Source: Candidatus Bathyarchaeota archaeon
Lineage (GTDB): Archaea; Thermoproteota; Bathyarchaeia; 40CM-2-53-6
DNA length: 64,000 bases
Direction: 5' to 3'
Assembly: GCA_005888635.1 (NCBI GenBank)
Contig: VBAW01000017.1
Location: 4,537 to 68,536 of the forward strand
Both the position numbers and the translations under genes were made by a program. Shown in pieces: positions 4,907 to 29,152 of this stretch. Numbering within the stretch: position 1 is the first letter of the stretch; each line of letters opens with the position of its first letter. The notes beneath the pieces were generated by a model. The model worked only from the letters and a program-made list of their open reading frames with translations. It searched no databases and had not been told where the DNA came from.

Positions 4907-5039
4907 TGGCGGGCCCGCCGGGAATTGAACCCGGGACAGCCGGGTGTCTTCCGCGAGGTAAAAGCTTCACCAGAGATAGCTCTTCCGGTGCTCTACCTCT
5001 TCAGGATCCCTGTTAGGAATCTGGCTGAGCTACGGGCCC
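4907..5039 (-). tRNA. tRNA-Lys (anticodon UUU) with three inferred introns and an encoded CCA
   Basis: Minus-strand exons reassemble to GGGCCCG TA GCTC AGCCAGGTA GAGC A CCGGG CTTTTAA CCCGG CTGTC CCGGG TTCAATT CCCGG CGGGCCC G CCA, 74 nt plus CCA. Inferred introns are 23 nt in the D-loop (about 5020-4998), 19 nt inside the anticodon stem (4984-4966) and 13 nt at canonical position 37/38 (4958-4946). The anticodon lies at 4962-4960. Confidence 0.8.
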
Positions 5040-5064
5040 GCGCGACGGCCGAGTTTGACCTGAT

Positions 5065-5072
5065 CTATATTA
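5065..5072 (-). promoter_or_regulatory. TATA-like box upstream of tRNA-Lys
   Basis: The minus strand reads TAATATAG, centred about 29 nt upstream of tRNA position 1 (5039). Comparable A/T boxes sit about 27-30 nt upstream of the other four tRNA genes. Confidence 0.35.
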
Positions 5073-5141
5073 GTTGATTTTCCAAACAAGACCAAGACGC
5101 TCTGTGAAAAAGCAAGTTGCCTCAACATTCGAGCCCTCAGA

Positions 5142-5594
5142 TCAAGATTGGCTAATCTGACTCATCCTGACCGCGCCGACAACCTCTAGCAGGCTTCTTC
5201 CTTGCGCAATGTTTGCCGGTACTTGCTTCCTTGCAATAAGGCCTGCAATAATGAGCTTCTCGACTACCCTAGCAGTCGGTCCTAGCACATCTTGTAAAGC
5301 CTTCACGAACTCTCCAACCAGTTTTGGAATCTGATCGGGTGAGATGGAATTTCGCCTTTGGAGGAGGAGAAATATTGACTCTTTGACAGTTGGTCCCAAT
5401 GCATCGAGAGCTGCGCTGACAGAGTCTACCAGAGCTTGGTCGAAAACGCCCGTCGGTTCATCACGCAACTCTATTAGACACCAACATCTGCGAACCTTTG
5501 CGTGACAGAGGCCTGACTGAGCAAGCATCTCGGCTCGTTCCGAGCTTCGCCCCTGACGTGTGAAGCAAGCCTTTGCCCATCGTGCCTTGACCAT
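5142..5594 (-). CDS. Hypothetical protein (start uncertain)
   Basis: 150-aa ORF. The C-terminal two thirds look like a helical globular protein. The N-terminal Arg/Cys-rich part may be untranslated, and an internal Met at MLAQSG is a possible start. Confidence 0.35.
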   Translation of the reverse strand: MVKARWAKACFTRQGRSSERAEMLAQSGLCHAKVRRCWCLIELRDEPTGVFDQALVDSVSAALDALGPTVKESIFLLLQRRNSISPDQIPKLVGEFVKALQDVLGPTARVVEKLIIAGLIARKQVPANIAQGRSLLEVVGAVRMSQISQS

Positions 5595-5780
5595 CCGCTT
5601 CTCTAATGAAAATTCAAGAAGATAGCAAGGATAGAGTCGAGATAAGAATCACGTTACTGTCAGCAACCCTACGAGGTCATCTCTGATTCAGCCGCGCTAG
5701 AACAGAGTCGCTTCTTAGTAATGCTGTGAACCAGCCTTCATACAGTCAATATTAACCATCTAAGATTCATAGCAGAGACT

Positions 5781-6332
5781 ATGATCGACCTTGCCGCGAT
5801 AACAGCGGACCTCAGTGCAGTGAGTTCGATAGCAATCATTCTAGGCGCCGTGTTCGTAATCTTTCAGCTCAGGCAGAACGCGAGACTGATCAGAACGGCC
5901 AACTTTGAAACCAAGGCCAACATGTCATTTTCAGTTCTGGAAATTATCACGGAAGAATCCTTCGCCCGTAGGAGGAAGAACATGCACGACGCGATAAAGA
6001 AGTACAGTCAGATCAACTGGGAAGGATTCGATGACAGTCTCGAAGATTTCGAAGCCCGAAACTTCGGCTACATCTACGAGCTAATCGGCGAGCTTGTCAG
6101 GGAAGGAATAATTGACTTCACGATCGCCATTCACTCCCTACGCTATCTGCTCGTGTTTGACTGGCAGAGATTCGAACCTCTGGTTAAGCATCTCATGGAA
6201 CGATACAAGGTCCCGGTGAACCCGTATGAAAACTTCGAATGGCTAGCGCAAGAAACAAGAAAGTACCTGGAGAACCAAGGAAGGATCGACACTGGACACC
6301 CCGAGATTCCTGCTCCCGCCAGCATGCACTAG
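5781..6332 (+). CDS. Hypothetical N-terminally membrane-anchored protein
   Basis: 183 aa with a single N-terminal hydrophobic helix (SSIAIILGAVFVIFQL) followed by a soluble helical domain. Confidence 0.45.
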   Translation: MIDLAAITADLSAVSSIAIILGAVFVIFQLRQNARLIRTANFETKANMSFSVLEIITEESFARRRKNMHDAIKKYSQINWEGFDDSLEDFEARNFGYIYELIGELVREGIIDFTIAIHSLRYLLVFDWQRFEPLVKHLMERYKVPVNPYENFEWLAQETRKYLENQGRIDTGHPEIPAPASMH

Positions 6333-6365
6333 CTTAAACATTAGAATAGAATCCTTCGCAGTCTG

Positions 6366-6698
6366 GTGCTAGACATGATCGTCAAGCATCTCTCCGAAAC
6401 AGTACCTGAGAGAGAAGGCGATTTTACACGATGGTATCTCTCGCGTGCCGACCGAGGCCATTCACTGGCCGTTAGATACGTTGAACTCACCGGAATGGTC
6501 CCACCACACACTCACGACGTTGAAGAGACAATCTTCTACATCGAGGGGAAGGGCTTAGCCCGAGTTGGTGGGAAAGAGGTTCGGGTCAAACCCGGAACCA
6601 TGGTGGTGGTTCCACCCGGCACCGTTCACAGTTCGATCAGGGAAGGCCTCGAACCACTCCGATACCTAGCGATCTTTGTAGGTAGCCCAGACCTCTAA
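6366..6698 (+). CDS. Cupin-domain protein
   Basis: 110 aa with the cupin_2-like motifs PPHTHDVEETIFYIEGKG and GTMVVVPPGTVHS. Confidence 0.75.
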   Translation: MLDMIVKHLSETVPEREGDFTRWYLSRADRGHSLAVRYVELTGMVPPHTHDVEETIFYIEGKGLARVGGKEVRVKPGTMVVVPPGTVHSSIREGLEPLRYLAIFVGSPDL

Positions 6699-6769
6699 CA
6701 CCAGCACGAATAAGACGACAGGACGCGAAGACACTGCAAGACCCCTCCGACTCATACAAACTAGAGCAG

Positions 6770-7429
6770 ATGAAGATCAAGCTGGCAAGAGGTGGAGAGA
6801 CCAGCATTGTCTACGGTCTGCCCTCCAAGATCCATGATCCATCGACATGCCTCATCATAGCCCACGGCGCCGGGGGACCAATGCACACGCCCTTCATACG
6901 ATATTTCCACACTGAACTCGCAAAGCGAGGCTTCCTGACTGTCAGGTTCAATTTTCCATACATGGAAGCCCGCAGGAGGGTGCCTGACAGGAGAGAGGTC
7001 CTGGAGGAAAGCTACCGCACAATCGTCGACCAAGCAAAGAACGGCACACATAAGCCAGATCGAATGGTCATAGGAGGAAAATCAATGGGGGGACGAATCG
7101 CGTCCCAGATAGCATCCAACGGGGTAGACGTGAACGGACTCTTCTTCCTCGGTTATCCACTCCATCCGATAGGCAAGACTGACCAGCTGAGGGATGAGCA
7201 CCTCTACCGGATCAAGAAGCCGATGCTTTTCTTGTCCGGGACGAGGGATAGTTTTGCCAGACAGGATCTTCTGGAAAAAGTCGTCTCAAGGATAGGATCA
7301 AACGCCCAGATCCATTGGATACAGAACGGAGACCATAGCTTCAAGACTCCTGATACGAAAACCGGCAACACAGGGAGTTTGCGGGAGGCCCTTGCACTTC
7401 TAGTGGATTGGTTGCAAACGATAGCCTAG
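6770..7429 (+). CDS. Alpha/beta hydrolase (dienelactone-hydrolase-like)
   Basis: 219 aa with the nucleophile elbow GGKSMGGRIAS (GxSxG), a late GTRD motif and a C-terminal GDHSF (His). Confidence 0.75.
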   Translation: MKIKLARGGETSIVYGLPSKIHDPSTCLIIAHGAGGPMHTPFIRYFHTELAKRGFLTVRFNFPYMEARRRVPDRREVLEESYRTIVDQAKNGTHKPDRMVIGGKSMGGRIASQIASNGVDVNGLFFLGYPLHPIGKTDQLRDEHLYRIKKPMLFLSGTRDSFARQDLLEKVVSRIGSNAQIHWIQNGDHSFKTPDTKTGNTGSLREALALLVDWLQTIA

Positions 7430-7673
7430 GGATCTGAAAGTCGGCGCGAGCTTCCTGCTCAATACTGTACATTTATTAGAGACGGACTGGGGTCGTGGGC
7501 TTAGAAGAACATTGTGCGACAGTTGCGGCTGTTCTTCAGAGCAGGAAGAGACGACTACTCAACCAGAGGAAGCCTAGCCCTATACCTGCTGGGGCATTGA
7601 AACTTCCCAAAAATCCAACGAAGGAGCAGCTGGGCTCCTTCCATCTTTTCAACCCTACAAAGTACCGAAAATC

Positions 7674-8093
7674 TTAGAGTCCTGGTATCGTCGGAAGAAC
7701 AAACAGAGCCCCTAGAGCTAAGGCCCCAAGAATAAAGATCAGTACTATCCCCACAACGACTGCCATGATTGATGTTCCTATCGCGCCTAACCATCCCGTC
7801 TTGAAGTAGTGTTTCACCAGCAACAGAAATATTAGCAGTCCGAGCAGGATGCCTATTGTTCCTAGGAACGCGATCGAAGCCCCAACTAGGAATGTTCCGA
7901 CACTAGCTATTCCCAAAGCCTCACCGAAAGTTACGCGGCGTCCAACTACTATTTCTCCCGCTAGCCAGAGTACAACCCCGATGACTAGGAGATAGATGAT
8001 GAAGAGGATGAGGAAGGTTATGAGAGTGGCGCTGAGACCTCCGATCGATGGTAGTGCCGGCGCCGGGTTCGCCATGAACGTCTTGCCCTGCAC
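7674..8093 (-). CDS. Hypothetical polytopic membrane protein
   Basis: 139 aa, almost entirely hydrophobic, with about 4 predicted TM helices. Confidence 0.55.
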   Translation of the reverse strand: MQGKTFMANPAPALPSIGGLSATLITFLILFIIYLLVIGVVLWLAGEIVVGRRVTFGEALGIASVGTFLVGASIAFLGTIGILLGLLIFLLLVKHYFKTGWLGAIGTSIMAVVVGIVLIFILGALALGALFVLPTIPGL

Positions 8094-8217
8094 ATCCCCG
8101 ATTGAAATGTCAAGTTATTCTTGATGAAACCTTTCTCATTCATCCATAGTAAGTTTCAGTTCTCTTCCGGGGAATATTGGGAAGGTTTAAGCTTGCACGC
8201 TTTCGGGTAGCGTGATT

Positions 8218-8395
8218 GCCCAGGAAATCAGTATCCGGGCTCGCGCCCCGTCCGTAAAATCCGGACGCGTTAAGGTAGTATAGCCCGGTCCACGGCTTGC
8301 GGGAGCCGGCCGAGAGTATGCACGGCTGTCACCCGTGCGACACTCGAAACGAACGGTCGAGCGCACGGCGGGTTCGAATCCCGCCCTGGGCGCCA
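8218..8395 (+). tRNA. tRNA-Asp (anticodon GUC) with three inferred introns and an encoded CCA
   Basis: Exons are 8218-8224 (GCCCAGG), 8276-8292 (TA GTAT AGCCCGGTCCA), 8316-8341 (GTAT G CACGG CTGTCAC CCGTG CGAC) and 8367-8392 (G GCGGG TTCGAAT CCCGC CCTGGGC G), followed by CCA. The acceptor stem forms a perfect 7 bp. The anticodon GTC is at 8328-8330. Inferred introns are 51, 23 and 25 nt. Confidence 0.8.
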
Positions 8396-8787
8396 AGCCA
8401 CTACACGACATCACTTCGACGCAATGGAGGATTATCTAGAATCGTCATGCTTCAAGTTGAACTATCGGGAACCCTGCCTAGAAACAAGGCTGGCTGACCA
8501 AGTGTCACAACATGCGAGGACCGCACACCTTGATGATCAGTCCAGCTTATCGGTGCTTACGTGATGACCCCGCACTAGCGCCACGCTTCCGACTATCTCG
8601 CAATTGGGAGATTATTCTGGGCGCTGCTCGATGCCGAGCCAAACAGAAGACTCAAGGTTGTATCGATTGTAGCCAGAACAATAATGCGAGTTTCTTGACT
8701 CATGTACGGCATGTGTACCCACTTGTGTTCTTGAGTACTTTAATGGCCCATGACGGGTCGAAATACTCTCGGTTGTAGACGTGTCGG

Positions 8788-8795
8788 TTATATGA
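8788..8795 (+). promoter_or_regulatory. TATA-like box for the oxidoreductase gene (leaderless or very short leader)
   Basis: TTATATGA is centred about 29 nt upstream of the ATG at 8821. Confidence 0.35.
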
Positions 8796-8820
8796 AAAGC
8801 CGCCTAGAGTGTTCCTCATC

Positions 8821-9873: not shown

Positions 9874-9986
9874 ACGAACCAGCAAAATAACGATAAGGGT
9901 TGAGGAACTCATGACAGGGGTTATGGCGTGCGTTAGAATCACCCGATGAAAAACATGCGCACAGTCTAACCCGGGCAACAATCCAA

Positions 9987-10181: not shown

Positions 10182-10326
10182 TCATTGAAATTCTCTCGCT
10201 ATACTAGTTTTAGAAACGCCGACTAAGATCCTCATAAACGTCTTGCGCGCGGACTATCGTCGCTGGCTTTGTAGAAAAAATGGGCTTCGCGGAAAAAGGG
10301 GCGAAGCCTTGTGGAACTGGATTGGA

Positions 10327-11781: not shown

Positions 11782-11810
11782 CTAATCACTCAAGCCCGGA
11801 TGGCCTCGGT

Positions 11811-12003
11811 CCCGGGGTAGCTCAGCCTGGAAGAGCTTCCGGCTGTAGTCCTGCACTCAACGTGCGGGTCAGCCAGCCGACCAGGCGTACAGATACCGGA
11901 GTGGAGAAGGTTCCACGGATTGTCGCCGGAGAATCGGACGTAACCGGTTCGGCGAGTTCAAAGTAGAGGTTTTCCCTCTATGGAACTCCGGCCCCCGGGA
12001 CCA
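11811..12003 (+). tRNA. tRNA-Tyr (anticodon GUA) with up to four inferred introns and an encoded CCA
   Basis: Has a C1-G72 acceptor pair (CCCGGGG/CCCCGGG) and discriminator A73, which are archaeal tRNA-Tyr identity features. Exon 1 is 11811-11848 and ends in the loop CTGTAG (anticodon 11845-11847). A 46-nt canonical intron lies at 11849-11894, followed by A38 and CCGGA. Further inferred introns are 11902-11920 (variable loop), 11930-11956 (53/54) and 11963-11986 (59/60). Removing them gives GCCGG TTCAAAT CCGGC, whose loop and 3' strand match the M. jannaschii tRNA-Tyr T-arm as I recall it. Confidence 0.85.
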
Positions 12004-13025: not shown

Positions 13026-13027
13026 AC

Positions 13028-14841: not shown

Positions 14842-15318
14842 AAGCGTTTCTGAATAGACCGACTGGACTGCTCGTTATAGGACTTGCTCAGTTCAGCGAG
14901 AATCATGTGAACGCTGATATGGACTATCAGCATTTCCATAACATGTACAATACAAACAGGAAACGAGATAATCGCGGCAACATCTATAACGAAAAACGCG
15001 CTGTCATAGGGTAATGCACGATAATTCCCCAAAACAAACGTGGCATTGTGGGAGTGCATACCGCGACCCTAAAGCTAACTTAATAGCTGCATTGCTGGCA
15101 TGGGCCCCTAGAGAGTCGCGATCACTGCCGTTGCCGACCGCTGGCTGCCGCGGATGAACGCTATCAAGCGACCACGTTACAGGTAGACTGCAAACTTCGC
15201 TGCTCCGACGCCAAAACGAATCTCGGACCATTCAACTCGCCAGAGCAAATGGTGTCAGTGGGCAAATGGGGGCCCTTCGGCCCTTAGGATGATAACCGGA
15301 GAATGGGCAGAATATTTG

Positions 15319-15576
15319 TTACTCTGGCCTGATGCTTTCGCCCGTCACAGTGTCGATCATGGTCAACGGGTCTGAGTCGCGCAGATACTTGTCAATGTAC
15401 TGATTTGCTTCTACGATGTCTGGAGCAACGAAGACGACCACGGCATCGTATCCACCTGTTCCAAAGATCACCTTCTCGGTCGTACATCCTAGCCATCGTT
15501 GCGGCAACTTTTGAAGCCGCTGCTTTGCTCCTTCCACCCTACCGGATATCTTCAGCAAAGCCACAAAGCTAGGCAT
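15319..15576 (-). CDS. Stand-alone Lrp/AsnC ligand-binding (RAM) domain protein
   Basis: MPSFVALLKISG ... GGYDAVVVFVAPDIVEANQYI ... TMIDTVTG follows the RAM-domain pattern. The longest ORF extends to 15588. Confidence 0.5.
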   Translation of the reverse strand: MPSFVALLKISGRVEGAKQRLQKLPQRWLGCTTEKVIFGTGGYDAVVVFVAPDIVEANQYIDKYLRDSDPLTMIDTVTGESIRPE

Positions 15577-16104
15577 CCTTTGTCTCAAATATCGTTCATC
15601 TGACGATTGAAAATATTAGTGTTTTGATTCACCTGTAATCGTTTTGATATAGAATTGGTCGAGTGCGGTTTGGGAAATAATAGTCCAGGTCCTGAATCTC
15701 GACCCTTCAAGAACCGTTCTGCGGTTTGAACGGCTCCCTTTAGCCGGAAAGACTCGACCTACGACCGCCATCGTATCCTCTGCAAGAAGATCGATGAAAA
15801 GCTCTGCATCGGCGACGCCAGCGACCCCGAGGCTCATGTCGATCGGGATTCCTAGCAGAAAATCTAAAAAACTCGTTGGACTAGACTAGTTCACGTTTTC
15901 TGACAGTCTGGGAAATCTTGCTGACATTATGTGGCGACAAAGCAGAGAAGCCAACATCCGCGAACGATGATGACCGGAACCGCGCTCGATGGATCTCTTC
16001 GTTCAGCGAAATCACGCGTAAATACTCTGGCAAATCGGATCCAGTTATCCTCTCTTGACTTCCTATTCACGTTGCATTTGTCTTGAATATGGCCTCGTGG
16101 GTCC

Positions 16105-18777
16105 ATGACGAGCAGGACCAGTTCTTCCCAGGCCCGACTGGTTGGAATCTTCGTACTTGTCCTCATAATATCTCTCGCCGAGTTCGCTGCTCTGCTCCTT
16201 GATTACCAGAACAACCGGTACCTCCGCCAATACGTCTCAGACAATCTTGGCACAATAATCTTAGCCACGATCGGCCTCCTTTTCGTCGCAGGGGGCGCAG
16301 GATACTTAGTCTTCAAGAGACTTGGAATCCCGAAGTCACCCGGACCCCGTGTCCCCACGTTCGCGCGAATCGGCTCCTCCGTAGGAAGAAGATACAAGCT
16401 GATAATCGTCTTTTGGATTCTGCTATTTGCGGCAAGTTTTCCGTTATCTCAACAACTCTCTCAAGTCACTACTTCAAGCACCAGCGGCGGACAATCCAGT
16501 TCCTCTCAATCTGCTCTAGCCCAGAATCTTATGGCTCAAGAATTTCCCCATCCCCAGTCTAATGCAAGCGCCATAATTCTCCTCCAAGGAAACAATGTTA
16601 CCGACAACGCGACCAAAATCTTCACTCTTCACCTAGAGCAACGCCTTGAGGCACCAAGAGTCCTCAACAGTCTCGAGAATCTCACGACAATCTACACTAT
16701 CGCCAGGATAGCCCTCATTGGAGCCTATTTGCAAAAGGGCTACAACTTCACTGCGGCGCAATCAAGTGCCAACCAGACCCTATGGGCTGATACCCTGTAT
16801 GAAATCCTGTCTCAATATCCCAAACTGATCCCACCGGCGATCATCCAGAACTTCATCAGTCCGAACAAGAACGCAATGATCATTCTGGTAACCTTCTCCC
16901 AGGCTCCCGGCTCGTTCGGCTCAGCAGACACCGACCCGATACTGAAGAACGTAGTAACTATGCGAAACATCATCTCCCAACTCAAAGCAAGCGATCCCGA
17001 ACCCTTACAGACATACGTTACAGGTGACCTAGCCACCACAGCCGACTCTTCTCTGGGAAGCAACGCCGACCTGGGTCGCATCGAACCCGTCACAGTCGGC
17101 GCCATCCTTGTTCTAGCTGGACTGTTCTTCCTTGCAATCGTCACTCCCTTCGTACCGCTTGCTACCGTTGGAATGGCGCTGCTGATGGCAGAAGGCGGCC
17201 TTTACCTCATCGGCAAATACATCATCCCTATCCAAGACACTACCACCACATTCCTGTTCACGATAATGCTTGGGGTCGGTACAGACTACGCCATCTTTCT
17301 AATGGCCCGTTACCGTGAAGAACGCGTAGAAGGCCGCGACAAGGCCAAAGCTATCCAGACTTCCATAACCTGGTCAGGAGAGAGCATCGCCACTAGCGCG
17401 ACCACTGTCATAATCGCGTTCGGGGCAATGACGTTAACCAGCTTCACCCTCCTCAGATCCATCGGCGTCGGCCTGGGCTTCGGCGTCTTGATTGCACTTC
17501 TAGTAAGCCTGACACTAATCCCCTCGCTCATTCTGATCGCGGGAGACCGGATATTTTGGCCTACTTCCGGGAAGAGATTCGAGGGTTATGCGGCTCGTGC
17601 GCGGAAGAGGAGAACTGAAAGGCCCGGATATTTCCGGCGAGCTGCAAGCTTCAGCGTCAAAAGACCCGTCCTAGTCTTAGGATTGGCTCTGATCATATCC
17701 ATCCCAGCGATCTACGTATCACTAACAGGGTCGACCTCGTACGACTTTGCAGCGGGTCTTCCAGCGGCCGAAAGCGTCAAGGGTATCACTGCTCTAGAAC
17801 AGAGCTTCGGCGCTGGTCAAATAGGCCCTACGCAAGTACTCGTGCAATTCCCAACAACCATTCTCGCAAACGGAAATCTCAGCGCGGGCGCACGTGCAAG
17901 CCTAGAAAAGCTGAGCCAGGCCATCGCCAACTTGACCAATGTCAAGGAAGTCACGGGACCTACTCGGCCCAATGGAATCGCGATAACGGGGACCAATCTA
18001 GCAGACATAGGACGCGACAATCGGACCGCCATGCTGACTGTCCTATTTGCTGACGAGCCATTCACCCAAAACTCTCTCAACACAGTCACTCAGATACGGA
18101 ACCTCTTAACAAGTCTTCAGAACTCCGACGCGTCGCTGGCTCAGGACGCCGTACTGGTAGGAGGCGCATCCGCATCCACACTGGATTTCGCCAATGAGAC
18201 GGTCAACCAGTTCAATACAATCAGAATATTGACAGTCGCAGCCATATTCGTCGTCTTGCTGCTAGTTCTCGGCTCCTATCCGCTAGCAATAACCGGGATA
18301 CTATCCATAGGCCTGAGCATAATCTGGGCTTACGCAGCCACTCTTCTCTTCTTCAACAACGTGCTCCAATCAGGGGTCCTCTTCATCATCCCCCTCGTAC
18401 TATTTCTGCTCCTTTATGGAATCGGTATGGACTACAACATCTTCATTCTAACCAGGATCAGGGAAGAAGCACAGAAGGGTAAGGAGACCCGACAAGCAGT
18501 TGTAGACGCCGTCGACAGAACCGGGGGAATAATAACGGCTCTAGCGCTTATCCTTGCGGGAGCACTGGGCTCACTACTGCTCTCATCCAATCGTCTTCTC
18601 GAAGGTTTCGGTTTCGCGATCGCCTTAGCTGTCGTCCTTGACGCAATGGTCGTGCGGACATATCTCGTCCCGGCAATCATGTCACTTCTCGGCCCTAGAG
18701 CATGGTGGGGTCCCAATCGGCTGAGAAGGGTACGATTCGACAAGAAAAGCAATCCACAATCCTCCAGCGATGCCTAG
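16105..18777 (+). CDS. MMPL/RND-superfamily membrane transporter
   Basis: 890 aa with duplicated modules. Each module has a TM bundle and the MMPL hallmark (GVGTDYAIFLMARYREE and GIGMDYNIFILTRIREE), separated by large extracytoplasmic loops. Confidence 0.9.
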   Translation: MTSRTSSSQARLVGIFVLVLIISLAEFAALLLDYQNNRYLRQYVSDNLGTIILATIGLLFVAGGAGYLVFKRLGIPKSPGPRVPTFARIGSSVGRRYKLIIVFWILLFAASFPLSQQLSQVTTSSTSGGQSSSSQSALAQNLMAQEFPHPQSNASAIILLQGNNVTDNATKIFTLHLEQRLEAPRVLNSLENLTTIYTIARIALIGAYLQKGYNFTAAQSSANQTLWADTLYEILSQYPKLIPPAIIQNFISPNKNAMIILVTFSQAPGSFGSADTDPILKNVVTMRNIISQLKASDPEPLQTYVTGDLATTADSSLGSNADLGRIEPVTVGAILVLAGLFFLAIVTPFVPLATVGMALLMAEGGLYLIGKYIIPIQDTTTTFLFTIMLGVGTDYAIFLMARYREERVEGRDKAKAIQTSITWSGESIATSATTVIIAFGAMTLTSFTLLRSIGVGLGFGVLIALLVSLTLIPSLILIAGDRIFWPTSGKRFEGYAARARKRRTERPGYFRRAASFSVKRPVLVLGLALIISIPAIYVSLTGSTSYDFAAGLPAAESVKGITALEQSFGAGQIGPTQVLVQFPTTILANGNLSAGARASLEKLSQAIANLTNVKEVTGPTRPNGIAITGTNLADIGRDNRTAMLTVLFADEPFTQNSLNTVTQIRNLLTSLQNSDASLAQDAVLVGGASASTLDFANETVNQFNTIRILTVAAIFVVLLLVLGSYPLAITGILSIGLSIIWAYAATLLFFNNVLQSGVLFIIPLVLFLLLYGIGMDYNIFILTRIREEAQKGKETRQAVVDAVDRTGGIITALALILAGALGSLLLSSNRLLEGFGFAIALAVVLDAMVVRTYLVPAIMSLLGPRAWWGPNRLRRVRFDKKSNPQSSSDA

Positions 18778-20208: not shown

Positions 20209-20337
20209 TGGCGGGCCCGCGGGGATTTGAACCCCGGACCTCTAGCCGGAGATTTTTCTCGAATCTCCTACAGCTGACTCCGATGGTGAAACCCCACTTA
20301 GGGGGCTGCCGCTCTATCCAGGCTGAGCTACGGGCCC
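20209..20337 (-). tRNA. Multi-intron tRNA, isotype unresolved (best parse gives loop CUUUCAA, Glu-UUC, tentative)
   Basis: On the minus strand the 5' part reads GGGCCCG TA GCTC AGCCTGGATA GAGC and the 3' part reads CGGGG TTCAAAT CCCCG CGGGCCC G CCA. Between them are 74 nt where 23 are expected. My parse is G GCAGC C [12 nt] TTTCA [11 nt CCATCGGAGTC] A GCTGT AG [28 nt] GTC. The 11-nt element resembles the 13-nt 37/38 intron of tRNA-Lys (CCTCGCGGAAGAC). Confidence 0.7.
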
Positions 20338-21531: not shown

Positions 21532-22848
21532 CTAAGTTAGTATCTTTGCCATTTCTTCCACTACTCGATTCTTCGGAACGTTTCTTTCCTCGCCAGTCTT
21601 CATGTCTCTCAACCGCACATTGCCCTCCTTGAGCTCTCTAGGACCTACAATCACAATGATTCGAACCTTGGCCGAGTCGGCATAATCCATCTGTTTTTTC
21701 AATGGACGCTCTTTGAGATCTCTGTCCGCGCGCAGTCCGCTATCTCGCAACGCTCGCATCACCTTGATGGTCTCGTCTCGCACGTCTTCGCCTGCCATTG
21801 CAACGTAGACCTGTGGATTCTGTTCCAGATCTGGGAAGAGCCCCTTCTTTTCGAGGGAGATCATGAGCCTCTCGAAGCCCCCTGCCACGCCGGTTGCAGG
21901 CATGTCTCGTTTTCCGTATATTCGACAGAGCTTGTCGAAACGGCCACCGCCAAACACGGCACCGACATCCTCGCCAGCTTGATCGTACGCTTCGAAGACT
22001 GTTCCGTCGTAGTAGCTTATCCCTCTCACAATTCTTAGGTCCACTTGGACCTTGGACCTTTTTCCTAGGGAGTCGACGTTGTCAATGGTTCCTGTGAGTT
22101 CCTGTAGTCCTTTGCTGATCAAGTCATTCTTCGGGAGTTTCTTCTCTAGATCGGGTAGGACTTTGTCGGCGTCTCCGCCGATATCAGCGAACCCCATGAC
22201 GCGTTTCACTTTGTCTTGGGAGAGCCCCGCTCTGCCTAGTTCTCCTTCGATCTGTTCGGGACCCTTTTTGCCCATTCCGTCGATGATTCGTAGCAATCTC
22301 TCGAGTTCCTCTTGTGAGCGGACGCCTATGGTCTGGAGGAACCCTTCTGCGAGTTTTCTGTTGCTGACTCGGACTTCGTGATCTTTCAATCCGACTTTGT
22401 CTAGAATGTCGGAACCTAGGCTGATGATCTCCGCATCAGCAGTGGGTTCAGCTACTCCATAGATTTCCGCGTCCCATTGTGTGTGGTATCTGTATCTGGC
22501 GTATTGTGGCTCGTCGTATCGCCAGACTCCTCCGATGCATCCGATCTTTATGGGTTCAGGAAGGTCGAATCGGTTGGCGATCATCCGGGTCATGCCGACC
22601 GTTAAGTCGAATCGGAGACCCAGGTTTCGCCCTGCTTTGTCTTTGAACCAGTAGATTTCTTCTCGCACTCCGGGGCCAGATTTTGCTTCGAGAGTCTCAA
22701 GATTTTCCACTGGGCTGGGCTCTAACAGTTGGAACCCGTAGCTCCAGAGTACTTGGCGGATTTTGTCAGCGAGCCAAATTCTCTTGGTCATCTCTTCCGG
22801 TTCTATGTCCTTCATTCCGCGGGGGAGTGTGAATTGAGTCTCAGACAA
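21532..22848 (-). CDS. hisS: Histidine--tRNA ligase
   Basis: 438 aa with the class II aaRS/HisRS motifs LPRGMKD, RYDEPQ..RYR, DAEIYG and GGGRFDKL, plus a C-terminal anticodon-binding domain. Confidence 0.92.
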   Translation of the reverse strand: MSETQFTLPRGMKDIEPEEMTKRIWLADKIRQVLWSYGFQLLEPSPVENLETLEAKSGPGVREEIYWFKDKAGRNLGLRFDLTVGMTRMIANRFDLPEPIKIGCIGGVWRYDEPQYARYRYHTQWDAEIYGVAEPTADAEIISLGSDILDKVGLKDHEVRVSNRKLAEGFLQTIGVRSQEELERLLRIIDGMGKKGPEQIEGELGRAGLSQDKVKRVMGFADIGGDADKVLPDLEKKLPKNDLISKGLQELTGTIDNVDSLGKRSKVQVDLRIVRGISYYDGTVFEAYDQAGEDVGAVFGGGRFDKLCRIYGKRDMPATGVAGGFERLMISLEKKGLFPDLEQNPQVYVAMAGEDVRDETIKVMRALRDSGLRADRDLKERPLKKQMDYADSAKVRIIVIVGPRELKEGNVRLRDMKTGEERNVPKNRVVEEMAKILT

Positions 22849-22872
22849 GCCGAAGAACCTTCAACGTCTGAA

Positions 22873-23418
22873 TTATTGGGATTGGAAAGTCTCAGGGTTC
22901 AACGTGTAGTAGACGATGTCTGTGCGCCGATCAATGACGGCCAACACCAGGTCCTTGCCATCCTTGTTTGCTTTCGCTGACAAAGTTGCGAGTTTTTCGA
23001 GTGTAGACTCTCCCCCCTCGAACACAATAGTTACAAGCCTTCTGACGGCTCCCTTACCGAAGGTTTCGAAATCGTAGCCCGCTTCTCCATCCCGGACCAA
23101 GTATCCCCGGTCCCGAAGGTCTCTGTAGACCAGATACTTTGTCCATATGGCGGGCTTCCCTACCGATAGCTTCGTCACCAGCTGCTGAAGCGACTTGGAC
23201 TGCTTGGTCTTCTCGTCCAAGACTTTGATCCTCTTCTTCTCAACGAGGTAGAAGGTTTCGTAGGGATTGAGTGTGATTCTGTCGTCGACTAGAGTTCCGA
23301 ACGCTTTCTCGCGGAGGTCCATCAGTTTCTCAGGTTCTCGGAGAAAGACTCCTCCCCTGGAAAGATAGGCCTCGATTGCCTCAACGATAACCGGTACTTG
23401 CTCGCTCTTGGTTTCCAA
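22873..23418 (-). CDS. tRNA-splicing endonuclease (EndA) family subunit, probably non-catalytic/structural
   Basis: Collinear with M. jannaschii EndA as I recall it: KYLVYRDLRDRGYLVRDG versus KYLVYKDLRTRGYIVKTG, and LVLAVIDRRTDIVYYTL versus LLIAIVDADGDIVYYNM. The positions aligning to catalytic Tyr115 and His125 read Phe (DFETF) and Arg/Leu (VRRLVTIV). The longest ORF reaches 23496, but the TTG at 23418 gives 181 aa, close to EndA size. It sits 24 nt upstream of hisS on the same strand. Confidence 0.65.
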   Translation of the reverse strand: METKSEQVPVIVEAIEAYLSRGGVFLREPEKLMDLREKAFGTLVDDRITLNPYETFYLVEKKRIKVLDEKTKQSKSLQQLVTKLSVGKPAIWTKYLVYRDLRDRGYLVRDGEAGYDFETFGKGAVRRLVTIVFEGGESTLEKLATLSAKANKDGKDLVLAVIDRRTDIVYYTLNPETFQSQ

Positions 23419-23452
23419 AGGGTTCCAGAAAGTCGAGCACGCGGACGGGCGG

Positions 23453-23460
23453 CTATAAAG
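23453..23460. promoter_or_regulatory. Possible shared TATA element between the divergent endA-like and mtnA genes
   Basis: CTATAAAG on the plus strand reads CTTTATAG on the minus strand. It lies about 40 nt from the mtnA ATG (23497) and about 37 nt from the proposed TTG (23418). Confidence 0.25.
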
Positions 23461-23496
23461 CCATTCAAATAGAAAGACGCGGCGACTAGAAATCAA

Positions 23497-24534: not shown

Positions 24535-24586
24535 GTTTAATGGTTCTTTGCTGATGTTTCTACTTTGTCTACGCTGAAAGGTAGTC

Positions 24587-25327
24587 TTACGCCACCATCT
24601 TGACGAGCGATAGGCCGATCTCGACGGGAACATTGCCTACTGACTCTATTCGAGACTTCCACTCATTTCCGATAGCTACGAGTGCATAGATGCCTATGAC
24701 TTCCGCTCTTGCCTTGAGAATGACCTTCATCATTGCCCGCTGGGTCTCTCCGCTGTCGATGATGTCGTCGGCGATGAGTACGCCCTCTCCTTTCTTGAAC
24801 GCGTCCTTGGAGACGTAGAGACTCTTCATTATGGCGGTCTTGGGGGGAACGTAGAATTCTTCGATGAATTCTCGGACGCCGACCTCTCTGGATTGTTTAG
24901 CGACGATTAGTCTCGTGCCTAGCCGGTGAGCTAGGAGCGTCGCGAGAGGGACGCCGTCGACAGCAGCGGTCATGACCTTGTTCACTCTTTTGCCTGCAAA
25001 CTTTCCGACAGCTTGTTGTACTGCTCTTTCTAGTAGCATTGTGTCGTTGATTATTCCTGTGTTGTCAAAGTAGCCTAGGTCGTCGAATTTGATTCTCTCG
25101 TGCAGTTCTTTTTCTAGGCTCATGTATTTCTGGAGAGTCCTGTTGATTTCTTCAGCGCGCTCGGCGGTTGGTAGCACGTGGCCTTTGACATAGCGACTCA
25201 ATACGGTCTCTGGTAAATGTAGAATGCCGGAGAGTTCTCTGTAGGTGTATTGCTCTTTTGCCAGGTTCAAGAGTTCGATCGTTTGGAGTTTGTACTTGAG
25301 ATCTAGAATGCGCGAGGTGTCCTTCAT
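24587..25327 (-). CDS. HTH domain fused to a phosphoribosyltransferase-like domain (PyrE-like/GfcR-like regulator)
   Basis: 246 aa. It has an N-terminal HTH (YTYRELSGILHLPETVLSRYVKG) and a C-terminal PRTase PRPP loop (VLIADDIIDSGET). Confidence 0.7.
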   Translation of the reverse strand: MKDTSRILDLKYKLQTIELLNLAKEQYTYRELSGILHLPETVLSRYVKGHVLPTAERAEEINRTLQKYMSLEKELHERIKFDDLGYFDNTGIINDTMLLERAVQQAVGKFAGKRVNKVMTAAVDGVPLATLLAHRLGTRLIVAKQSREVGVREFIEEFYVPPKTAIMKSLYVSKDAFKKGEGVLIADDIIDSGETQRAMMKVILKARAEVIGIYALVAIGNEWKSRIESVGNVPVEIGLSLVKMVA

Positions 25328-25390
25328 TGCTTGTATTCGCGCTTTAGCCCTTTGTACCCTGTATAACGTTTTCCGTATCGCGCAACGTGA

Positions 25391-25825
25391 TCATTTTTTC
25401 CGGCGACTCTTGACGACTCCCCGACTGTTCTGGTATTTTCCCACGTATGCATGTGTCGCAGGCATTCCGAGTCTTAACAAAGAGAGCTGGATGAACCTCT
25501 CGCCCTTCCTGAGACTAACCAATCTATCTCCGGCATTATGGAGACTGACTGTGAGTTGTCCGCGGAAGCCGGGGTCGACTAGAGCGAGACTCGCAACTAT
25601 CCCCTCTCTTGCCAAAGATGACCGAATGTGGAGTATTCCGAGAAACCTCTCCGAAAGTTCCACCCGTTCAATAGTAGCCACTAGTCTCTGCTGGCCAGGT
25701 CTTAGTACCAGACTTCTATCGGCTCGCAGGTCTATACCGGCAGGATTCAGTTTCGGGTTTCGTGGAACGATGTGAAACTGGCCGGTTTTTATCGCACCAG
25801 TGATCTCGCTGTCGGAGAGGGCCAT
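25391..25825 (-). CDS. dcd: dCTP deaminase / dUTPase-superfamily enzyme
   Basis: PAGIDLR, RSSLAREGI, VDPGFRGQLTVSLHN and GERFIQLS motifs. The start is placed at MALSDSEI, although the longest ORF reaches 25882. Confidence 0.85.
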   Translation of the reverse strand: MALSDSEITGAIKTGQFHIVPRNPKLNPAGIDLRADRSLVLRPGQQRLVATIERVELSERFLGILHIRSSLAREGIVASLALVDPGFRGQLTVSLHNAGDRLVSLRKGERFIQLSLLRLGMPATHAYVGKYQNSRGVVKSRRKK

Positions 25826-25830
25826 TTCTG

Positions 25831-26595
25831 TTGGATGCGATGACGACGGTTTCAAAAAGGCTTCCAAGTGGGTGGAAGACATCGGAGCGTAACGGAAGAT
25901 CTGCCGTCAAGAGAGCGCTCTCTTCTTGTCCAGCACCTTATCGCAGCAGATCTGTAGGCTCTTTGGCCGACCGTAGAGTCTGGCAGAAGGGGGTTCGATA
26001 TTTGAAGAGGAGTGATCCGATCCTCGCCCGGATAATCGATAGAGTGGGTCCGGTCAAGTTCGAACTGGATGACGATCACTATGAAGCGGTTGTGGGCTCC
26101 ATCATCTTTCAGCAGCTAGCCGGTTCAACTGCTCGAGCGATTCTGAATAGGTTCAAACAACTCTACGGGGGACGAGTTCCTAGTCCGAGGGAATACTTGT
26201 CAACTGATGTTGAAAAGTTGCGTGGAAGCGGGTTGTCCCCGCAGAAAATCTCCTACATCAGGGATCTCGCTGAACGACTGGAGAACGGGACTCTGGACCT
26301 GAAGAGGCTGGAGAATCTCCCTGATGAGGAAGCCCTCAACGAACTGGACAACGTCAGGGGAATCGGGAGATGGACCGCCGAGATGTTTCTGATTTTCAAG
26401 CTGGGCAGGACAGACGTGTTGCCGGTTGATGATCTGGGTCTGCGCAAGGCGGCTCGGAAAGCTTACAGGCTTCGAACGCTTCCGAAGAGAGATAGGTTTG
26501 AACAGCTAGCGAAGAAGTGGCATCCTTACTCTTCAATCTCGACCTTCTACCTCTGGAAGAGCATGGAGAAGCCTGAAGCTCCCGCGAAATGGTAG
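25831..26595 (+). CDS. HhH-GPD DNA glycosylase (AlkA-like 3-methyladenine DNA glycosylase II)
   Basis: LDNVRGIGRWTAEMFLIFKLGRTDVLPVDDLGLRKA is the HhH-GPD motif with the catalytic Asp. The N-terminal ~50 aa of the ORF are Arg/Ser-rich, so the true start may be later (for example TTG at 26002). Confidence 0.8.
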   Translation: MDAMTTVSKRLPSGWKTSERNGRSAVKRALSSCPAPYRSRSVGSLADRRVWQKGVRYLKRSDPILARIIDRVGPVKFELDDDHYEAVVGSIIFQQLAGSTARAILNRFKQLYGGRVPSPREYLSTDVEKLRGSGLSPQKISYIRDLAERLENGTLDLKRLENLPDEEALNELDNVRGIGRWTAEMFLIFKLGRTDVLPVDDLGLRKAARKAYRLRTLPKRDRFEQLAKKWHPYSSISTFYLWKSMEKPEAPAKW

Positions 26596-26872
26596 CACAA
26601 GACCTGTCCGGCTTCCCCCAAAGTTTCCAATTTTCGAACCATTCTAATCTGTCAGCAAGTGGGCCTGATCTGCAAAGAAACAAAGAGTTGAATCAGACAC
26701 AGAATGTAGATTACCTACAATCGTGTCTGAAACCGCTAGACAACCAGCGAGTTCGGACATCTCAGGCGAAGACCCTCAGGGAAATAATTCGGATTTTAGA
26801 CGATTGGATAAATTCACACGCTTAATCGAGGTTAGAGCGACTACTCGATTCCTCGAACACGATGACTCGGTC

Positions 26873-27766
26873 TTATTTTCTTCCTATCCAGCATGCGTTC
26901 TTACTCTTGTCGTACCAAGAGTTAACATATTCACCAGTCGCTATTCTATTGCAGACAAAATTTGCGTCGCAGTAATCACAGATTTCTTCGTTACCGATGA
27001 CCCAGCCGGTCCCAGGGTCCATGTCTGTCTTTACTTCGACCATCTCTTCCGATAATCCCTGCGTCAGAGTGTCGAGGGGATCCTGGGTGCACTGGTTGCA
27101 TCCTTGAGCGCAGGGATAGGGTTCGACCGTGTAGAATGGCCCATTGGGACCATTGGCAGTGTCGTGATAATCACAGAAACTATTGCATGAGACGTCGCCT
27201 GAAATTGAGGCGGTGGTTCCTGGTGGCAGGAAGATGTTGTAGGCACCGGCAGTTCTGAGGTCCGCTACTGTTCCGGAGCTAATCCAGCCGATGAGGGTCT
27301 TGGCGATCTGATCGTTGGAGATTTGGGAGGGAGGGTCTTGTGGAATCATGACTGGTCCGATCAGTTTGCCAGTTCCTACATTGTACGTGCTTAGCCCGCC
27401 TGAGTAGCTAGTATCGGATTCTAGATGCGCCACAACTAGCTCTAGCCTCTTCATCCATTGTGATGAAGATGGTTTAGTGTAGTAGCTGCCCCAGTAAATG
27501 TTCTGCCAAGTATAACCGTCCTGCCAGAGGGGTCCACCGTTGTATTTCACGATCGATGATGTTGTTGCCGGGTGGACTCGGTGATTGCAGGGTTGAGAAT
27601 AGTGCCATATTCCAGAGGGCTGCTTGTCGTATGTGAGATTGTAGTCGACGACAGGAATCCTAAACCGACTCTTCGTCCCTCTCACGCCAACATGACGGAA
27701 ACTGTCAGAGGAGGTCCCGCAAATGGGGCACTTGAAAATATTCCTGCAGGAGTCGCATCTGTCCAT
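26873..27766 (-). CDS. Hypothetical cysteine-rich protein with an N-terminal zinc ribbon
   Basis: 297 aa with CDSC..(7)..CPICG at the N-terminus and many further Cys (SCNSFCDYHD, PCAQGCNQC, ICDYCDANFVC). It has neither a signal peptide nor a TM segment. Confidence 0.55.
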   Translation of the reverse strand: MDRCDSCRNIFKCPICGTSSDSFRHVGVRGTKSRFRIPVVDYNLTYDKQPSGIWHYSQPCNHRVHPATTSSIVKYNGGPLWQDGYTWQNIYWGSYYTKPSSSQWMKRLELVVAHLESDTSYSGGLSTYNVGTGKLIGPVMIPQDPPSQISNDQIAKTLIGWISSGTVADLRTAGAYNIFLPPGTTASISGDVSCNSFCDYHDTANGPNGPFYTVEPYPCAQGCNQCTQDPLDTLTQGLSEEMVEVKTDMDPGTGWVIGNEEICDYCDANFVCNRIATGEYVNSWYDKSKNACWIGRK

Positions 27767-27893
27767 GATAAGCGGTCATTATCGGGCTCCGTTTCTAAAA
27801 CTTCTCTAGATAGGATTGTTACTTGCGAGCGTGGTGTTCGGTTCAGACGCTGACAAATATCGTGCAGTTTGCCCTTTGTATTTCAGAGAAACA

Positions 27894-28409
27894 ATGTCCA
27901 AATCTGCATCAACTAGCTTTGTCTTCGCAAATGCTAAGGGAGAACTCGGACACATTGTCAGCCAGCTCAAACGAGTCGGCAGCATAGAATCCGTCACTCC
28001 GGTCACCGGACGCTTCGACCTCGTGATCCGACTGAAGACCAACGAGCTCATCAAAGCATTCAACACCGTCGAGAAGATCAGAAGCATCACCGGCATCACG
28101 TCCACCCAGACAGCGTTCTCGATCGAGAACGTTTCCAATGCCAAGAACAGGGAAGAGTCCTCTGAGCCCCCGCTCGCCTTTGCGCTGGTCAAGGTCAAAG
28201 GCAAGTTCCGAACCGTGCTCCAGAAGCTAAAGTCGTTCCCGAACCTCGTCGAGGCTCACCTGATTCCAGGAGAGTTCGATGTTGTCGCCTCTTTCAACGG
28301 CTTCAGTCAGGATGAGCTCATGGAGAATTCCGTTGAGAAGATCAGCAGAATCAACGGAGTAACCGCCAGCGAGACACTTATCACTTGGACCCCCACCAAA
28401 CAACCATAG
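27894..28409 (+). CDS. Tandem Lrp/AsnC ligand-binding (RAM) domain protein without an HTH
   Basis: Two repeats follow the RAM pattern: FVFANAKGELGHIVSQLKRVGSIESVTPVTGRFDLVIRL and AFALVKVKGKFRTVLQKLKSFPNLVEAHLIPGEFDVVASF. The ATG is at 27894. Confidence 0.6.
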   Translation: MSKSASTSFVFANAKGELGHIVSQLKRVGSIESVTPVTGRFDLVIRLKTNELIKAFNTVEKIRSITGITSTQTAFSIENVSNAKNREESSEPPLAFALVKVKGKFRTVLQKLKSFPNLVEAHLIPGEFDVVASFNGFSQDELMENSVEKISRINGVTASETLITWTPTKQP

Positions 28410-28530
28410 AAACTCCTCGCTAAGGAAGCGTATCAGCTTCCTTCTATTTTTCTAACGAGAAACCTAGTTCCGCTCTATTTCTAAACTTGCATATGGTTGA
28501 ACGACCAGTTGATGCGTATATTAGACAGGA

Positions 28531-28983
28531 CTACTCGTTGACTACCCGTTCTGGCTCTATCTTCACGAGGATTCTACCAACACCCGGTTGATGATGCGGA
28601 TTTTTGCTAGTACCAAGATACTTCACGGACAGCCTGTTGTTGTGTTCTTCCGCTCCTTTCGACGTCATGTCCAGCACCCGTCCCCTGATTACGACCTTCT
28701 CGTAGGGATCCTGCTGATTGAAAATGCTCAAGGCCACCCTATGATTCGCCTTCAGATACTTCGCCTTCGCTCGACCCTCAGCAGTGTTCACAAGAATAAG
28801 GTCTCCTTCACGATCAACCCACACGGGACTCACATGCGGCGAACCATCAGACATCACAAAGGCAAGATTGCCAAAATTCTTGCCATCAATCAGTTTGATT
28901 GCTTTCTCGGAGAGTCTTGCACGTGGCATGAGTAATGCAGCTTTCATGAACGAGGACTCCGTAATTAAAGAGATGCTACGCAC
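28531..28983 (-). CDS. PPOX-family (pyridoxamine-5'-phosphate-oxidase-like, possibly F420-dependent) protein
   Basis: NLAFVMSDGSPHVSPVWVDREGDLILVNT ... YLKANHRVALSI. The likely true start is the Met at 28929 (MPRARLSEK). Confidence 0.75.
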   Translation of the reverse strand: MRSISLITESSFMKAALLMPRARLSEKAIKLIDGKNFGNLAFVMSDGSPHVSPVWVDREGDLILVNTAEGRAKAKYLKANHRVALSIFNQQDPYEKVVIRGRVLDMTSKGAEEHNNRLSVKYLGTSKNPHHQPGVGRILVKIEPERVVNE

Positions 28984-29049
28984 CGCTACTCCGAATGCTT
29001 CAACTTTGCACGCAGAACAAATTCAAATAATTTTTGTCGATGAAGTAAA

Positions 29050-29152
29050 TGGCGGGCCCGGTGGGATTCGAACCCACGATTTTGGGCTCTCTTCACTCTG
29101 AAATCGAAAGCTCCGAAGGCCCACGTCTTGGTCCTGGCTCGACTACGGGCCC
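29050..29152 (-). tRNA. tRNA-Arg (anticodon UCG) with a canonical 24-nt intron and an encoded CCA
   Basis: The minus strand reads GGGCCCG TA GTCG AGCCAGGACCA AGAC G TGGGC CTTCGG [24 nt, 29112-29089] A GCCCA AAATC GTGGG TTCGAAT CCCAC CGGGCCC G CCA. The intron 3' segment GAAG pairs with loop CTTC, as expected for a bulge-helix-bulge (BHB) splice motif. Confidence 0.85.

Follow-up and report, generated by a model that had tools for sequence, protein, structure and literature searches.

Multi-intron tRNA genes with bulge-helix-bulge splice sites in soil Bathyarchaeia

A 64,000-nucleotide stretch of contig VBAW01000017.1 (assembly GCA_005888635.1) of a Candidatus Bathyarchaeota archaeon, referred to here as the window, contains five tRNA genes, all of them interrupted. 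Together they hold 13 introns of 13-46 nt (three in tRNA-Lys, three in tRNA-Asp, four in tRNA-Tyr, two in tRNA-Arg(CCU) and one in tRNA-Arg(UCG)), or 2.6 per gene. We consider it very likely, on the strength of sequence comparison, that all five genes are functional and that their 13 introns would be removed from long precursors by the archaeal protein-only tRNA splicing pathway. A first-pass annotation of the same DNA, made from its letters alone, had proposed archaeal multi-intron genes spliced at bulge-helix-bulge (BHB) motifs, and this proposal is supported by the BHB geometry of the insertions, the cloverleafs that their removal restores, exon junctions in orthologues, covariation, and a gene of the EndA family that lies within the window.

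Five interrupted tRNA genes

The five genes are tRNA-Lys(UUU) (4907-5039, minus strand; 133 nt), tRNA-Asp(GUC) (8245-8395, plus strand; 151 nt, or 178 nt when the start is taken at an upstream GCCCAGG at 8218), tRNA-Tyr(GUA) (11811-12003, plus strand; 193 nt, with a C1-G72 pair), tRNA-Arg(CCU) (20209-20337, minus strand; 129 nt) and tRNA-Arg(UCG) (29050-29152, minus strand; 103 nt). When the sequences are read, the acceptor, D, anticodon and T pieces are recognisable in each of these 103-193-nt genes with insertions between them, in agreement with the first-pass annotation, which had placed interrupted genes at these five sites. Removing the insertions restores the cloverleafs, as had also been claimed: the spliced sequences are all called by ARAGORN as canonical 77-79-nt tRNAs with CCA, namely Lys(ttt), Asp(gtc), Tyr(gta), Arg(cct) and Arg(tcg), and the mature lengths are 77 nt for Lys and Tyr and 78 nt for Asp and Arg(CCU), the latter including its CCA. 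The 3' CCA is encoded by all five genes (4907-4909, 8393-8395, 12001-12003, 20209-20211 and 29050-29052), a feature noticed earlier; it is missing in several orthologues of both Arg genes, and the genomic CCA is therefore gene-specific, not clade-wide.

Bulge-helix-bulge geometry of the introns

Splice sites were examined in a BHB register with two 3-nt bulges, whose middle positions are taken by the final base of the exon and the final base of the intron. The central helix (H) forms between the two 4-nt segments that lie immediately 5' of the bulges, and is flanked by an outer helix on the exon side (h) and an inner helix within the intron (h'). The best BHB candidates from scans of the genes are the same insertions whose removal restores the cloverleaf. 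In exact register the central helix has four of four pairs in 11 of the 13 introns and three of four in the other two; when position pairs are picked arbitrarily within these genes, a complete helix has a background frequency of 0.023. The probability of reaching at least 11 of 13 by chance is ~1e-16, and ~1e-11 when three registers are allowed per intron. The genes are thus multi-intron genes as first annotated, with 13 introns found in place of the approximately 14 originally counted.

The canonical position 37/38 is occupied in tRNA-Arg(UCG) by a 24-nt intron (29089-29112, minus strand) with a strict hBHBh' motif (H 4/4, CUUC/GAAG; h and h' 5 bp each), in tRNA-Tyr by the 46-nt intron 1 (11849-11894, plus strand; H 4/4, CUGU/ACAG; h 6, h' 0), which is a relaxed hBH motif, and in tRNA-Lys by the 13-nt intron 3 (4946-4958, minus strand; H 4/4, CUUU/GAAG). 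These three pairings had been recognised at the outset. The fourth pairing given at that time, TTTC/GGAG in the fifth tRNA, does not hold, as the TTTC is intronic; this site is the 23-nt intron 1 of tRNA-Arg(CCU) (20276-20298, minus strand; h 5, h' 1), whose helix is CCCC/GGAG with three of four pairs and a C33-A mismatch.

The non-canonical introns are at positions 4/5, 17/17a, 20b/21, 30/31, 43/44, 44/45, 48/49, 53/54 and 59/60, and the earlier suggestion that sites besides 37/38 are used is borne out both by this geometry and by the orthologues described below. tRNA-Lys has a 24-nt intron 1 in the D-loop after position 17 (4999-5022, minus strand; H 4/4, h 1, h' 7) and a 19-nt intron 2 in the anticodon stem at 30/31 (4966-4984, minus strand; H 4/4, h 4, h' 4). 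In tRNA-Asp a 24-nt intron 1 splits the acceptor stem at 4/5 (8249-8272, plus strand; H 4/4, h 2, h' 5, with leader nucleotides used), a 23-nt intron 2 lies in the D-loop at the conserved site 20b/21 (8292-8314, plus strand; H 4/4, h 1, h' 6), and a 26-nt intron 3 at the variable-loop/T-stem junction 48/49 (8342-8367, plus strand) forms a strict BHB (H 4/4, h 5, h' 5). The remaining introns of tRNA-Tyr, all on the plus strand, are the 19-nt intron 2 in the variable loop at 44/45 (11902-11920; H 3/4, h' 4), whose boundary is ambiguous by up to 2 nt owing to a GU/UG repeat, the 27-nt intron 3 at the T-stem/T-loop junction 53/54 (11930-11956; H 4/4, h' 7) and the 24-nt intron 4 in the T-loop at 59/60 (11963-11986; H 4/4, h' 6). 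Intron 2 of tRNA-Arg(CCU), 28 nt in length, is found at the anticodon-stem/variable-loop junction 43/44 (20242-20269, minus strand; H 4/4, h 3, h' 7).

Most of the non-canonical introns are built alike: a single bulge base, as a rule A, is followed by a hairpin whose stem has 4-7 bp, then by the 4-nt H strand and finally by two bulge bases. The outer helix of Lys intron 3 grows from 1 to 5 bp after removal of intron 2, and that of Tyr intron 4 from 1 to 5 after removal of intron 3; that these helices are complete only after a neighbour has gone suggests an order of splicing.

Conservation of exons and turnover of introns in related loci

Related loci were fetched, each designated by an L number, and contain orthologues of all five tRNAs. 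One comparison pairs the window with L010, where the histidyl-tRNA synthetase (HisRS) is 70% identical, the tRNA exons are 96.5% identical and shared introns 67.5%; the mature tRNA-Tyr is 100% identical between the two. The tRNA-Arg(UCG) gene of L018 has no intron, and its joint, CUUCGG followed directly by AGCCC, is exactly as predicted from the window, while other loci have introns of 24 or 39 nt at the same site. The 37/38 intron of tRNA-Arg(CCU) is at the same site in all orthologues with diverged sequences, and the 43/44 intron is missing in L006, L008, L009, L010, L018 and L014, where GCUGU followed directly by AGGUC reproduces the predicted joint; these six genes instead have a 30/31 intron with a complete central helix (4/4).

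Similar substitutions of one site for another are seen in tRNA-Tyr, where the 44/45 intron is missing in L006, L008, L009 and L018, leaving a plain GUGUC loop, and a 30/31 intron is present. L010 has both 30/31 and 44/45 introns, giving a 253-nt gene with five introns, all with H 4/4, and a spliced product that is the same as that of the window. tRNA-Lys has the same three sites in L010 and in the more distant L015 (HisRS 54% identical), with a fourth intron in L010, and its intron 2, 19 nt long in the window, is 25 nt in L010 and 40 nt in L015. The three Asp sites are shared by four orthologues, in which intron 1 has H 4/4 and an h' of 1-7; the sequence of Asp intron 3 has diverged at a conserved site, and the Asp anticodon stem of L010 carries a compensatory change from C:G to U:A.

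The flanks of the related loci contain mostly the same five tRNA families together with an 88-nt tRNA-Leu(CAG) without an intron, which is present on contigs of the same soil clade (L034, L068, L107, L126 and L147). Not every tRNA in these organisms is therefore interrupted, and with the intron-less Leu(CAG), and sometimes Arg(UCG), in relatives, the genome-wide number of introns per gene is expected to be lower than the 2.6 of the window. Comparison of these sequences indicates that introns are gained and lost over short evolutionary times within the clade around a nearly invariant mature tRNA.

tRNA-Tyr in metagenomes and covariation at a splice site

When the 31-nt first exon of tRNA-Tyr was searched for exactly in metagenome contigs of the Joint Genome Institute (JGI), at least 120 contigs matched, mostly from soil as judged by contig series names. 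Among the matches listed are 83 distinct complete Tyr genes 163-253 nt in length, 73 with four introns, three with five and seven with three, and none of the 83 has fewer than three, although an intron-less copy would match the search pattern. Varying subsets of the sites 30/31, 37/38, 44/45, 53/54 and 59/60 are occupied in this same set: 37/38 and 59/60 in all 83 genes, 53/54 in 50 and 44/45 in 43. Also among the matches listed, the central helix has four of four pairs in 261 of 328 introns, the mature tRNA-Tyr differs by a handful of single-base variants, and CCA is encoded in all 117 complete copies.

Covariation was tested for one intron, Tyr 59/60, using an alignment of 30 diverse versions, the other introns being judged by eye. 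Paired cells make up 85% of the BHB overall, 95.8% of H and 88% of h', compared with 32-52% in slid-partner controls, and five of the six h' pairs have changed on both sides. This pattern shows that the splice-site structure is under selection.

The 5' end and leader of tRNA-Asp

In the 5' leader of tRNA-Asp (8218-8244, plus strand) the spliced 5' acceptor strand, GCCCAGG, is repeated letter for letter; a variable spacer and then CCGGGCUCGC come next. This arrangement is kept in ~35 of 38 distinct Asp genes, with spacers of 8-14 nt. Two mature 5' ends can be considered, both of which yield the same mature tRNA-Asp. The only BHB available places its cuts behind the GCCC that ends at 8248 and ahead of the AGG that starts at 8273, with leader positions -4 to -1 forming part of the motif and H using two leader bases together with G1-C2. 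Removal of the intervening 24 nt gives GCCCAGG-UA-GUAU, a complete 5' acceptor/D junction. Because this is the sole BHB and because of the product that it gives, tRNA-Asp most probably starts at 8245 and has a 24-nt intron at 4/5, with RNase P taking off the 27-nt leader, a better account than the 51-nt insertion at the acceptor/position-8 boundary that had been annotated.

The competing possibility, which concerns tRNA-Asp only, is that the mature 5' end is the GCCCAGG at 8218-8224 and that a 51-nt insertion between positions 7 and 8 is removed, perhaps by two nested excisions. The upstream 7-mer matches exactly, has the wide conservation noted above and base-pairs with the 3' acceptor strand in the minimum free energy (MFE) fold. 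A conserved TATA-like GGTTTAAG precedes it by ~26 nt, and the other tRNAs of the window have this same distance from promoter to mature 5' end. Neither 7/8 nor any register of the GCCCAGG repeat, however, allows a BHB: the 3' splice-site helix strand GCGU has as its sole 4-bp partner GCGC, made up of the last two leader bases (-2 and -1) plus G1-C2 of the second copy, and it is this second copy that is joined into the complete junction when 24 nt are removed. We therefore regard a start at 8218 as improbable and retain 8245 as the 5' end. A role for the leader is a matter of speculation. The element can also form a hairpin, and as long as the true 5' strand remains interrupted it may keep the 3' acceptor strand occupied or fold into an acceptor-like hairpin of its own; it may as such be a processing aid for a gene with an intron-split acceptor strand.

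Identity of the fifth tRNA

The fifth tRNA, initially left without an identity, is tRNA-Arg(CCU) with introns at 37/38 and 43/44. Its anticodon loop is CCCCUAA (~20299-20304 plus 20275), and the conserved block CCCCUA directly follows the anticodon-stem strand GCAGC. Nine aligned orthologues keep the anticodon-loop block, as CCCCUA in the eight from the soil clade and as a normal CUCCUAA in the distant Bathyarchaeia locus L014, and CCCCUA is found in all 23 distinct soil-clade versions. The conserved block and the CUCCUAA of L014 fix the anticodon as CCU. The loop has C at position 33, at which U is near-universal in tRNAs. A reading of this gene as tRNA-Glu(UUC), joining C, UUUCA and A across gaps of 12 and 11 nt, was rejected, as the orthologues conserve CCCCUA and UUUCACC is not conserved.

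An EndA-family gene in the window

A gene for an EndA-family protein of 207 aa is located at 22873-23496 on the minus strand (Pfam PF01974, 4.8e-13; PF02778, 3.2e-08), directly upstream of the HisRS gene (21532-22848, minus strand), and this pairing is syntenic in all the Bathyarchaeia loci fetched. Matches in the Protein Data Bank are the EndA proteins of M. kandleri and M. jannaschii. Relative to M. jannaschii, Y115 is replaced by F and H125 by A, and the Lys is retained; the catalytic His is missing in every Bathyarchaeia orthologue at the syntenic position and is kept in the non-Bathyarchaeia locus L023. These substitutions make it probable that the product serves as the structural (beta) subunit in an (alpha-beta)2 EndA, and an EndA subunit without catalytic residues fits a heterotetrameric enzyme of broad specificity.

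Proposed splicing pathway and alternative explanations

Each of the five genes would be transcribed as one long precursor, in which most introns are predicted to be closed by an internal 4-7-bp h' hairpin. EndA would cut within both bulges and an RNA ligase would join the exons. Catalytic alpha subunits and the non-catalytic beta-like product of 22873-23496 probably make up a heterotetrameric enzyme, a type of EndA that accepts relaxed BHBs at any position in a tRNA. Some introns probably leave before others, since Lys intron 3 and Tyr intron 4 would gain their outer helix after the removal of a neighbour.

Several points weigh against this account. Cleavage, ligation, the exact cleavage phosphates, the subunit composition of EndA and the order of splicing are all steps that we infer from sequence. 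No second, catalytic EndA gene and no RNA ligase gene were found within the window. The reading of Asp intron 1 depends on a 5' end at 8245, and the promoter spacing would also fit a transcript start at 8218. Some motifs are weak: the Tyr 44/45 and Arg(CCU) 37/38 introns have three of four central pairs, and several introns have a flanking helix of 0-1 bp in the full precursor. MFE folds of the precursors contain five of the 13 BHB central helices, among them that of Asp intron 3 with its BHB, by a strict check that may undercount; such folding is uninformative as a test for BHBs, as RNAfold favours symmetric internal loops over paired bulges even at the textbook Arg(UCG) intron.

The five loci might alternatively be decaying pseudogenes that have accumulated insertions, with functional uninterrupted copies elsewhere in the genome. 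Such an origin would agree with the failure of standard finders to call the loci correctly and with the unusual C33 of tRNA-Arg(CCU), and the sequence examined is the window, with the rest of the genome lying outside it. Decay does not, however, account for exons that are almost invariant between genomes 30% apart in HisRS while the introns diverge, nor for compensatory changes both in a tRNA stem (Asp) and in an intron helix (Tyr 59/60), for insertions placed exactly at BHB registers, or for the Tyr genes among the matches listed, 83 distinct ones on over 100 metagenome contigs, without a single member below three introns. Uninterrupted copies that would mark these loci as pseudogenes had been named as the observation to look for; the identity of the mature Tyr to that of L010, the Asp change and the Tyr set speak against them. 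The orthologue, metagenome and covariation results together exclude pseudogenes as well as assembly artefacts, and we leave to decay only the slightest of chances.

An explanation confined to the weaker motifs holds that the Tyr 44/45, Arg(CCU) 37/38 and Lys 37/38 insertions are kept as extra arms or removed by an activity other than EndA. It draws on the three of four central pairs or very short flanking helices of these three sites in the full precursor, and on the alternative single-intron parses that ARAGORN can be made to produce for some of the genes. Retention would destroy the anticodon or variable loop of tRNAs that are otherwise canonical, and the parses give implausible and mutually inconsistent identities among orthologues (Pyl, Asn, Leu, Pro, Val). 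Each site also has its own counter-argument: the Tyr 44/45 intron is missing in many orthologues, which then have a normal 5-nt loop, and has H 4/4 in L010; 37/38 is where EndA acts universally; and at Lys 37/38 the BHB is complete once the neighbouring intron is gone. This explanation is accordingly very unlikely, and EndA-dependent removal of all 13 introns remains the preferred interpretation.

Detection and annotation of the interrupted genes

ARAGORN in its default mode calls none of the five tRNA genes in the 64-kb window. The Rfam tRNA model makes two calls at its gathering score, 29053-29152 (minus strand; Arg(UCG), 53 bits) and 20212-20337 (minus strand; Arg(CCU), 42.2 bits), and a third at a relaxed E-value, 4910-5039 (minus strand; Lys, 38.5 bits). 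A scan based on a 7-bp acceptor pair and a following N-CCA recovers these three genes and two more, 8218-8395 and 11811-12003, both on the plus strand; unspliced tRNA-Tyr gives no call with either Rfam or ARAGORN. T-arm and D-arm motif scans of the window reveal no additional tRNA, and none was found at 30-64 kb. The scans could still have passed over a gene that lacks CCA and has insertions in its D-loop as well as its T-loop. Scanning GC content for hidden tRNA exons in the window was not discriminating. Across 140 kb of related loci Rfam at its gathering score finds six tRNAs; the multi-intron genes for Tyr, Asp and Lys are missed, as are most of those for Arg(CCU).

Mislabelling is a further difficulty. 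When anticodon-loop introns are allowed, ARAGORN reports the Arg(CCU) gene of the window as tRNA-Pyl(cta), i.e. an amber suppressor, and its orthologues (in loci including L001, L004, L011, L016, L030 and L032) as Asn, Leu, Pro, Gly or Val. The Pyl(cta) call could lead annotators to assume an amber suppressor that does not exist. Since finders miss or mislabel these genes, tRNA counts used for the quality of metagenome-assembled genomes (MAGs) and the inference of genetic-code variants are unreliable in these lineages without BHB-aware tools.

T-arm-like candidates at ~15515 and ~23731, both on the minus strand, were rejected; they have neither acceptor nor D-arm and lie within coding sequences, of a small GYD-like open reading frame (ORF) and an eIF-2B-family gene respectively. 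Another candidate at ~21457 (minus strand) was discarded in the absence of T-arm and acceptor pairing. The small ORF, of ~80 aa at ~15340-15590 (minus strand), has a GYD-domain-like motif (...GTGGYDAVVVFVAPD...) and accounts for part of the apparent ~1-kb non-coding gap at 15059-16105. A sub-threshold Rfam match to the C/D-box small RNA family sR47 at 32635-32672 (plus strand; 21 bits, E = 0.68) is probably due to chance.

Host lineage

The closest relatives of HisRS, at 70-99% identity, are from soil MAGs, mostly labelled Bathyarchaeota or Bathyarchaeia; others among the close soil MAGs are labelled 'archaeon' or 'Crenarchaeota archaeon' in several cases, and two are labelled as bacteria. These MAGs derive from a Californian grassland series (13_1_40CM..., BA_n) and from SMAG soil assemblies. 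Identity falls to 50-56% in hot-spring and other Bathyarchaeia and to ~35% in other archaea. The host is one of the soil Bathyarchaeia, and the HisRS relatives place it outside the order Thermoproteales; the first-pass annotation had described multi-intron tRNAs as known mainly from Thermoproteales-like archaea. The host order is apparently Houtuarculales, equivalent to GTDB o__40CM-2-53-6 and soil-dominated, on the basis of MAG names and of Hou et al. 2023 (PMC10321748).

Comparison with known systems

Published surveys set the scale for these numbers. A 2014 review (PMC4033280) gives a maximum of three introns per tRNA gene, as does the tRNAscan-SE 2.0 paper of 2021 (PMC8450103; three or fewer per gene), which records 71 introns in 46 genes of Pyrobaculum calidifontis as the highest total and a mean of 0.84 for Thermoproteales. 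Valentin-Alvarado et al. 2024 (PMC11291895) report 228 introns in three soil Asgard genomes, or ~1.9 per gene, and note that tRNAscan-SE undercounts them; several genes in their Supplementary Data 4 have four observed introns, and none has five. The five introns in relatives of the window exceed this published maximum of four, and the 2.6 per gene in the window exceeds every published genome mean, as a value for a sample of five genes. The initial impression that the density of the window, 13 introns in five genes, is at the extreme end is borne out.

Our literature search found no report of tRNA introns in Bathyarchaeia or of a tRNA gene with five introns, which is not proof that none exists. 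The mechanism and gene architecture are known from the multiple-intron tRNAs of Thermoproteales, and it is the lineage and habitat that are new, as far as the literature was searched. We put forward, at slightly under even confidence, the wider proposal that soil Bathyarchaeia (apparently Houtuarculales) have the most fragmented tRNA sets described, in which tRNA-Tyr normally has four introns and may have five, the genome mean is above two, turnover is fast, and most of the genes are missed or misnamed by finders. If this is true, MAG quality scores and inferred genetic codes are distorted for a dominant group of soil archaea. Extreme fragmentation, known in hyperthermophilic Thermoproteales and in soil Asgard archaea, extends to the mesophilic soil Bathyarchaeia, an abundant uncultured group, and the observed ceiling moves to five introns in a 77-nt tRNA. 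The dozens of near-identical mature tRNAs that differ in the occupancy of five sites are well suited to testing intron gain and loss and ordered removal.

The closest parallel is with the Thermoproteales (Pyrobaculum, Thermofilum and Caldivirga), where, as described in those sections of PMC4033280 and PMC8450103 that draw on Sugahara 2008 and Fujishima 2010, short BHB introns also occur several per gene. The positions used are shared, with D-loop, anticodon-stem, variable-loop, T-arm and acceptor-stem sites in addition to the canonical one. Further likenesses are a fast turnover of introns between related organisms, BHBs that depend on a neighbour and, probably, a heterotetrameric EndA; PMC8450103 describes introns in Crenarchaeota whose BHB forms only after a neighbouring intron has been removed. 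Unlike these organisms, the host here belongs to mesophilic soil Bathyarchaeia and has 13 introns in five genes, with four in tRNA-Tyr and five in some relatives. The soil Asgard archaea (Atabeyarchaeia and Freyarchaeia; PMC11291895) are similar in their wetland or soil habitat and in that the majority of their tRNA genes are interrupted, in many cases by several introns and at sites other than the canonical one. They differ in belonging to another phylum, in having ~1.9 introns per gene in contrast to the 2.6 of our five-gene sample, and in lacking a counterpart to the three distinct five-intron Tyr genes seen among the matches listed.

The Thaumarchaeota/Nitrososphaeria, a neighbouring TACK lineage, likewise have many non-canonical BHB introns and need a clade-specific covariance model, with fewer introns per gene so far as PMC8450103 states. 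The split and permuted tRNA genes of Nanoarchaeum, Caldivirga and Thermofilum (PMC4033280, PMC3978253) are also resolved by EndA at BHBs; unlike those genes, the ones described here have colinear exons contiguous within 103-193 nt, with no halves at separate loci and with their order unpermuted.

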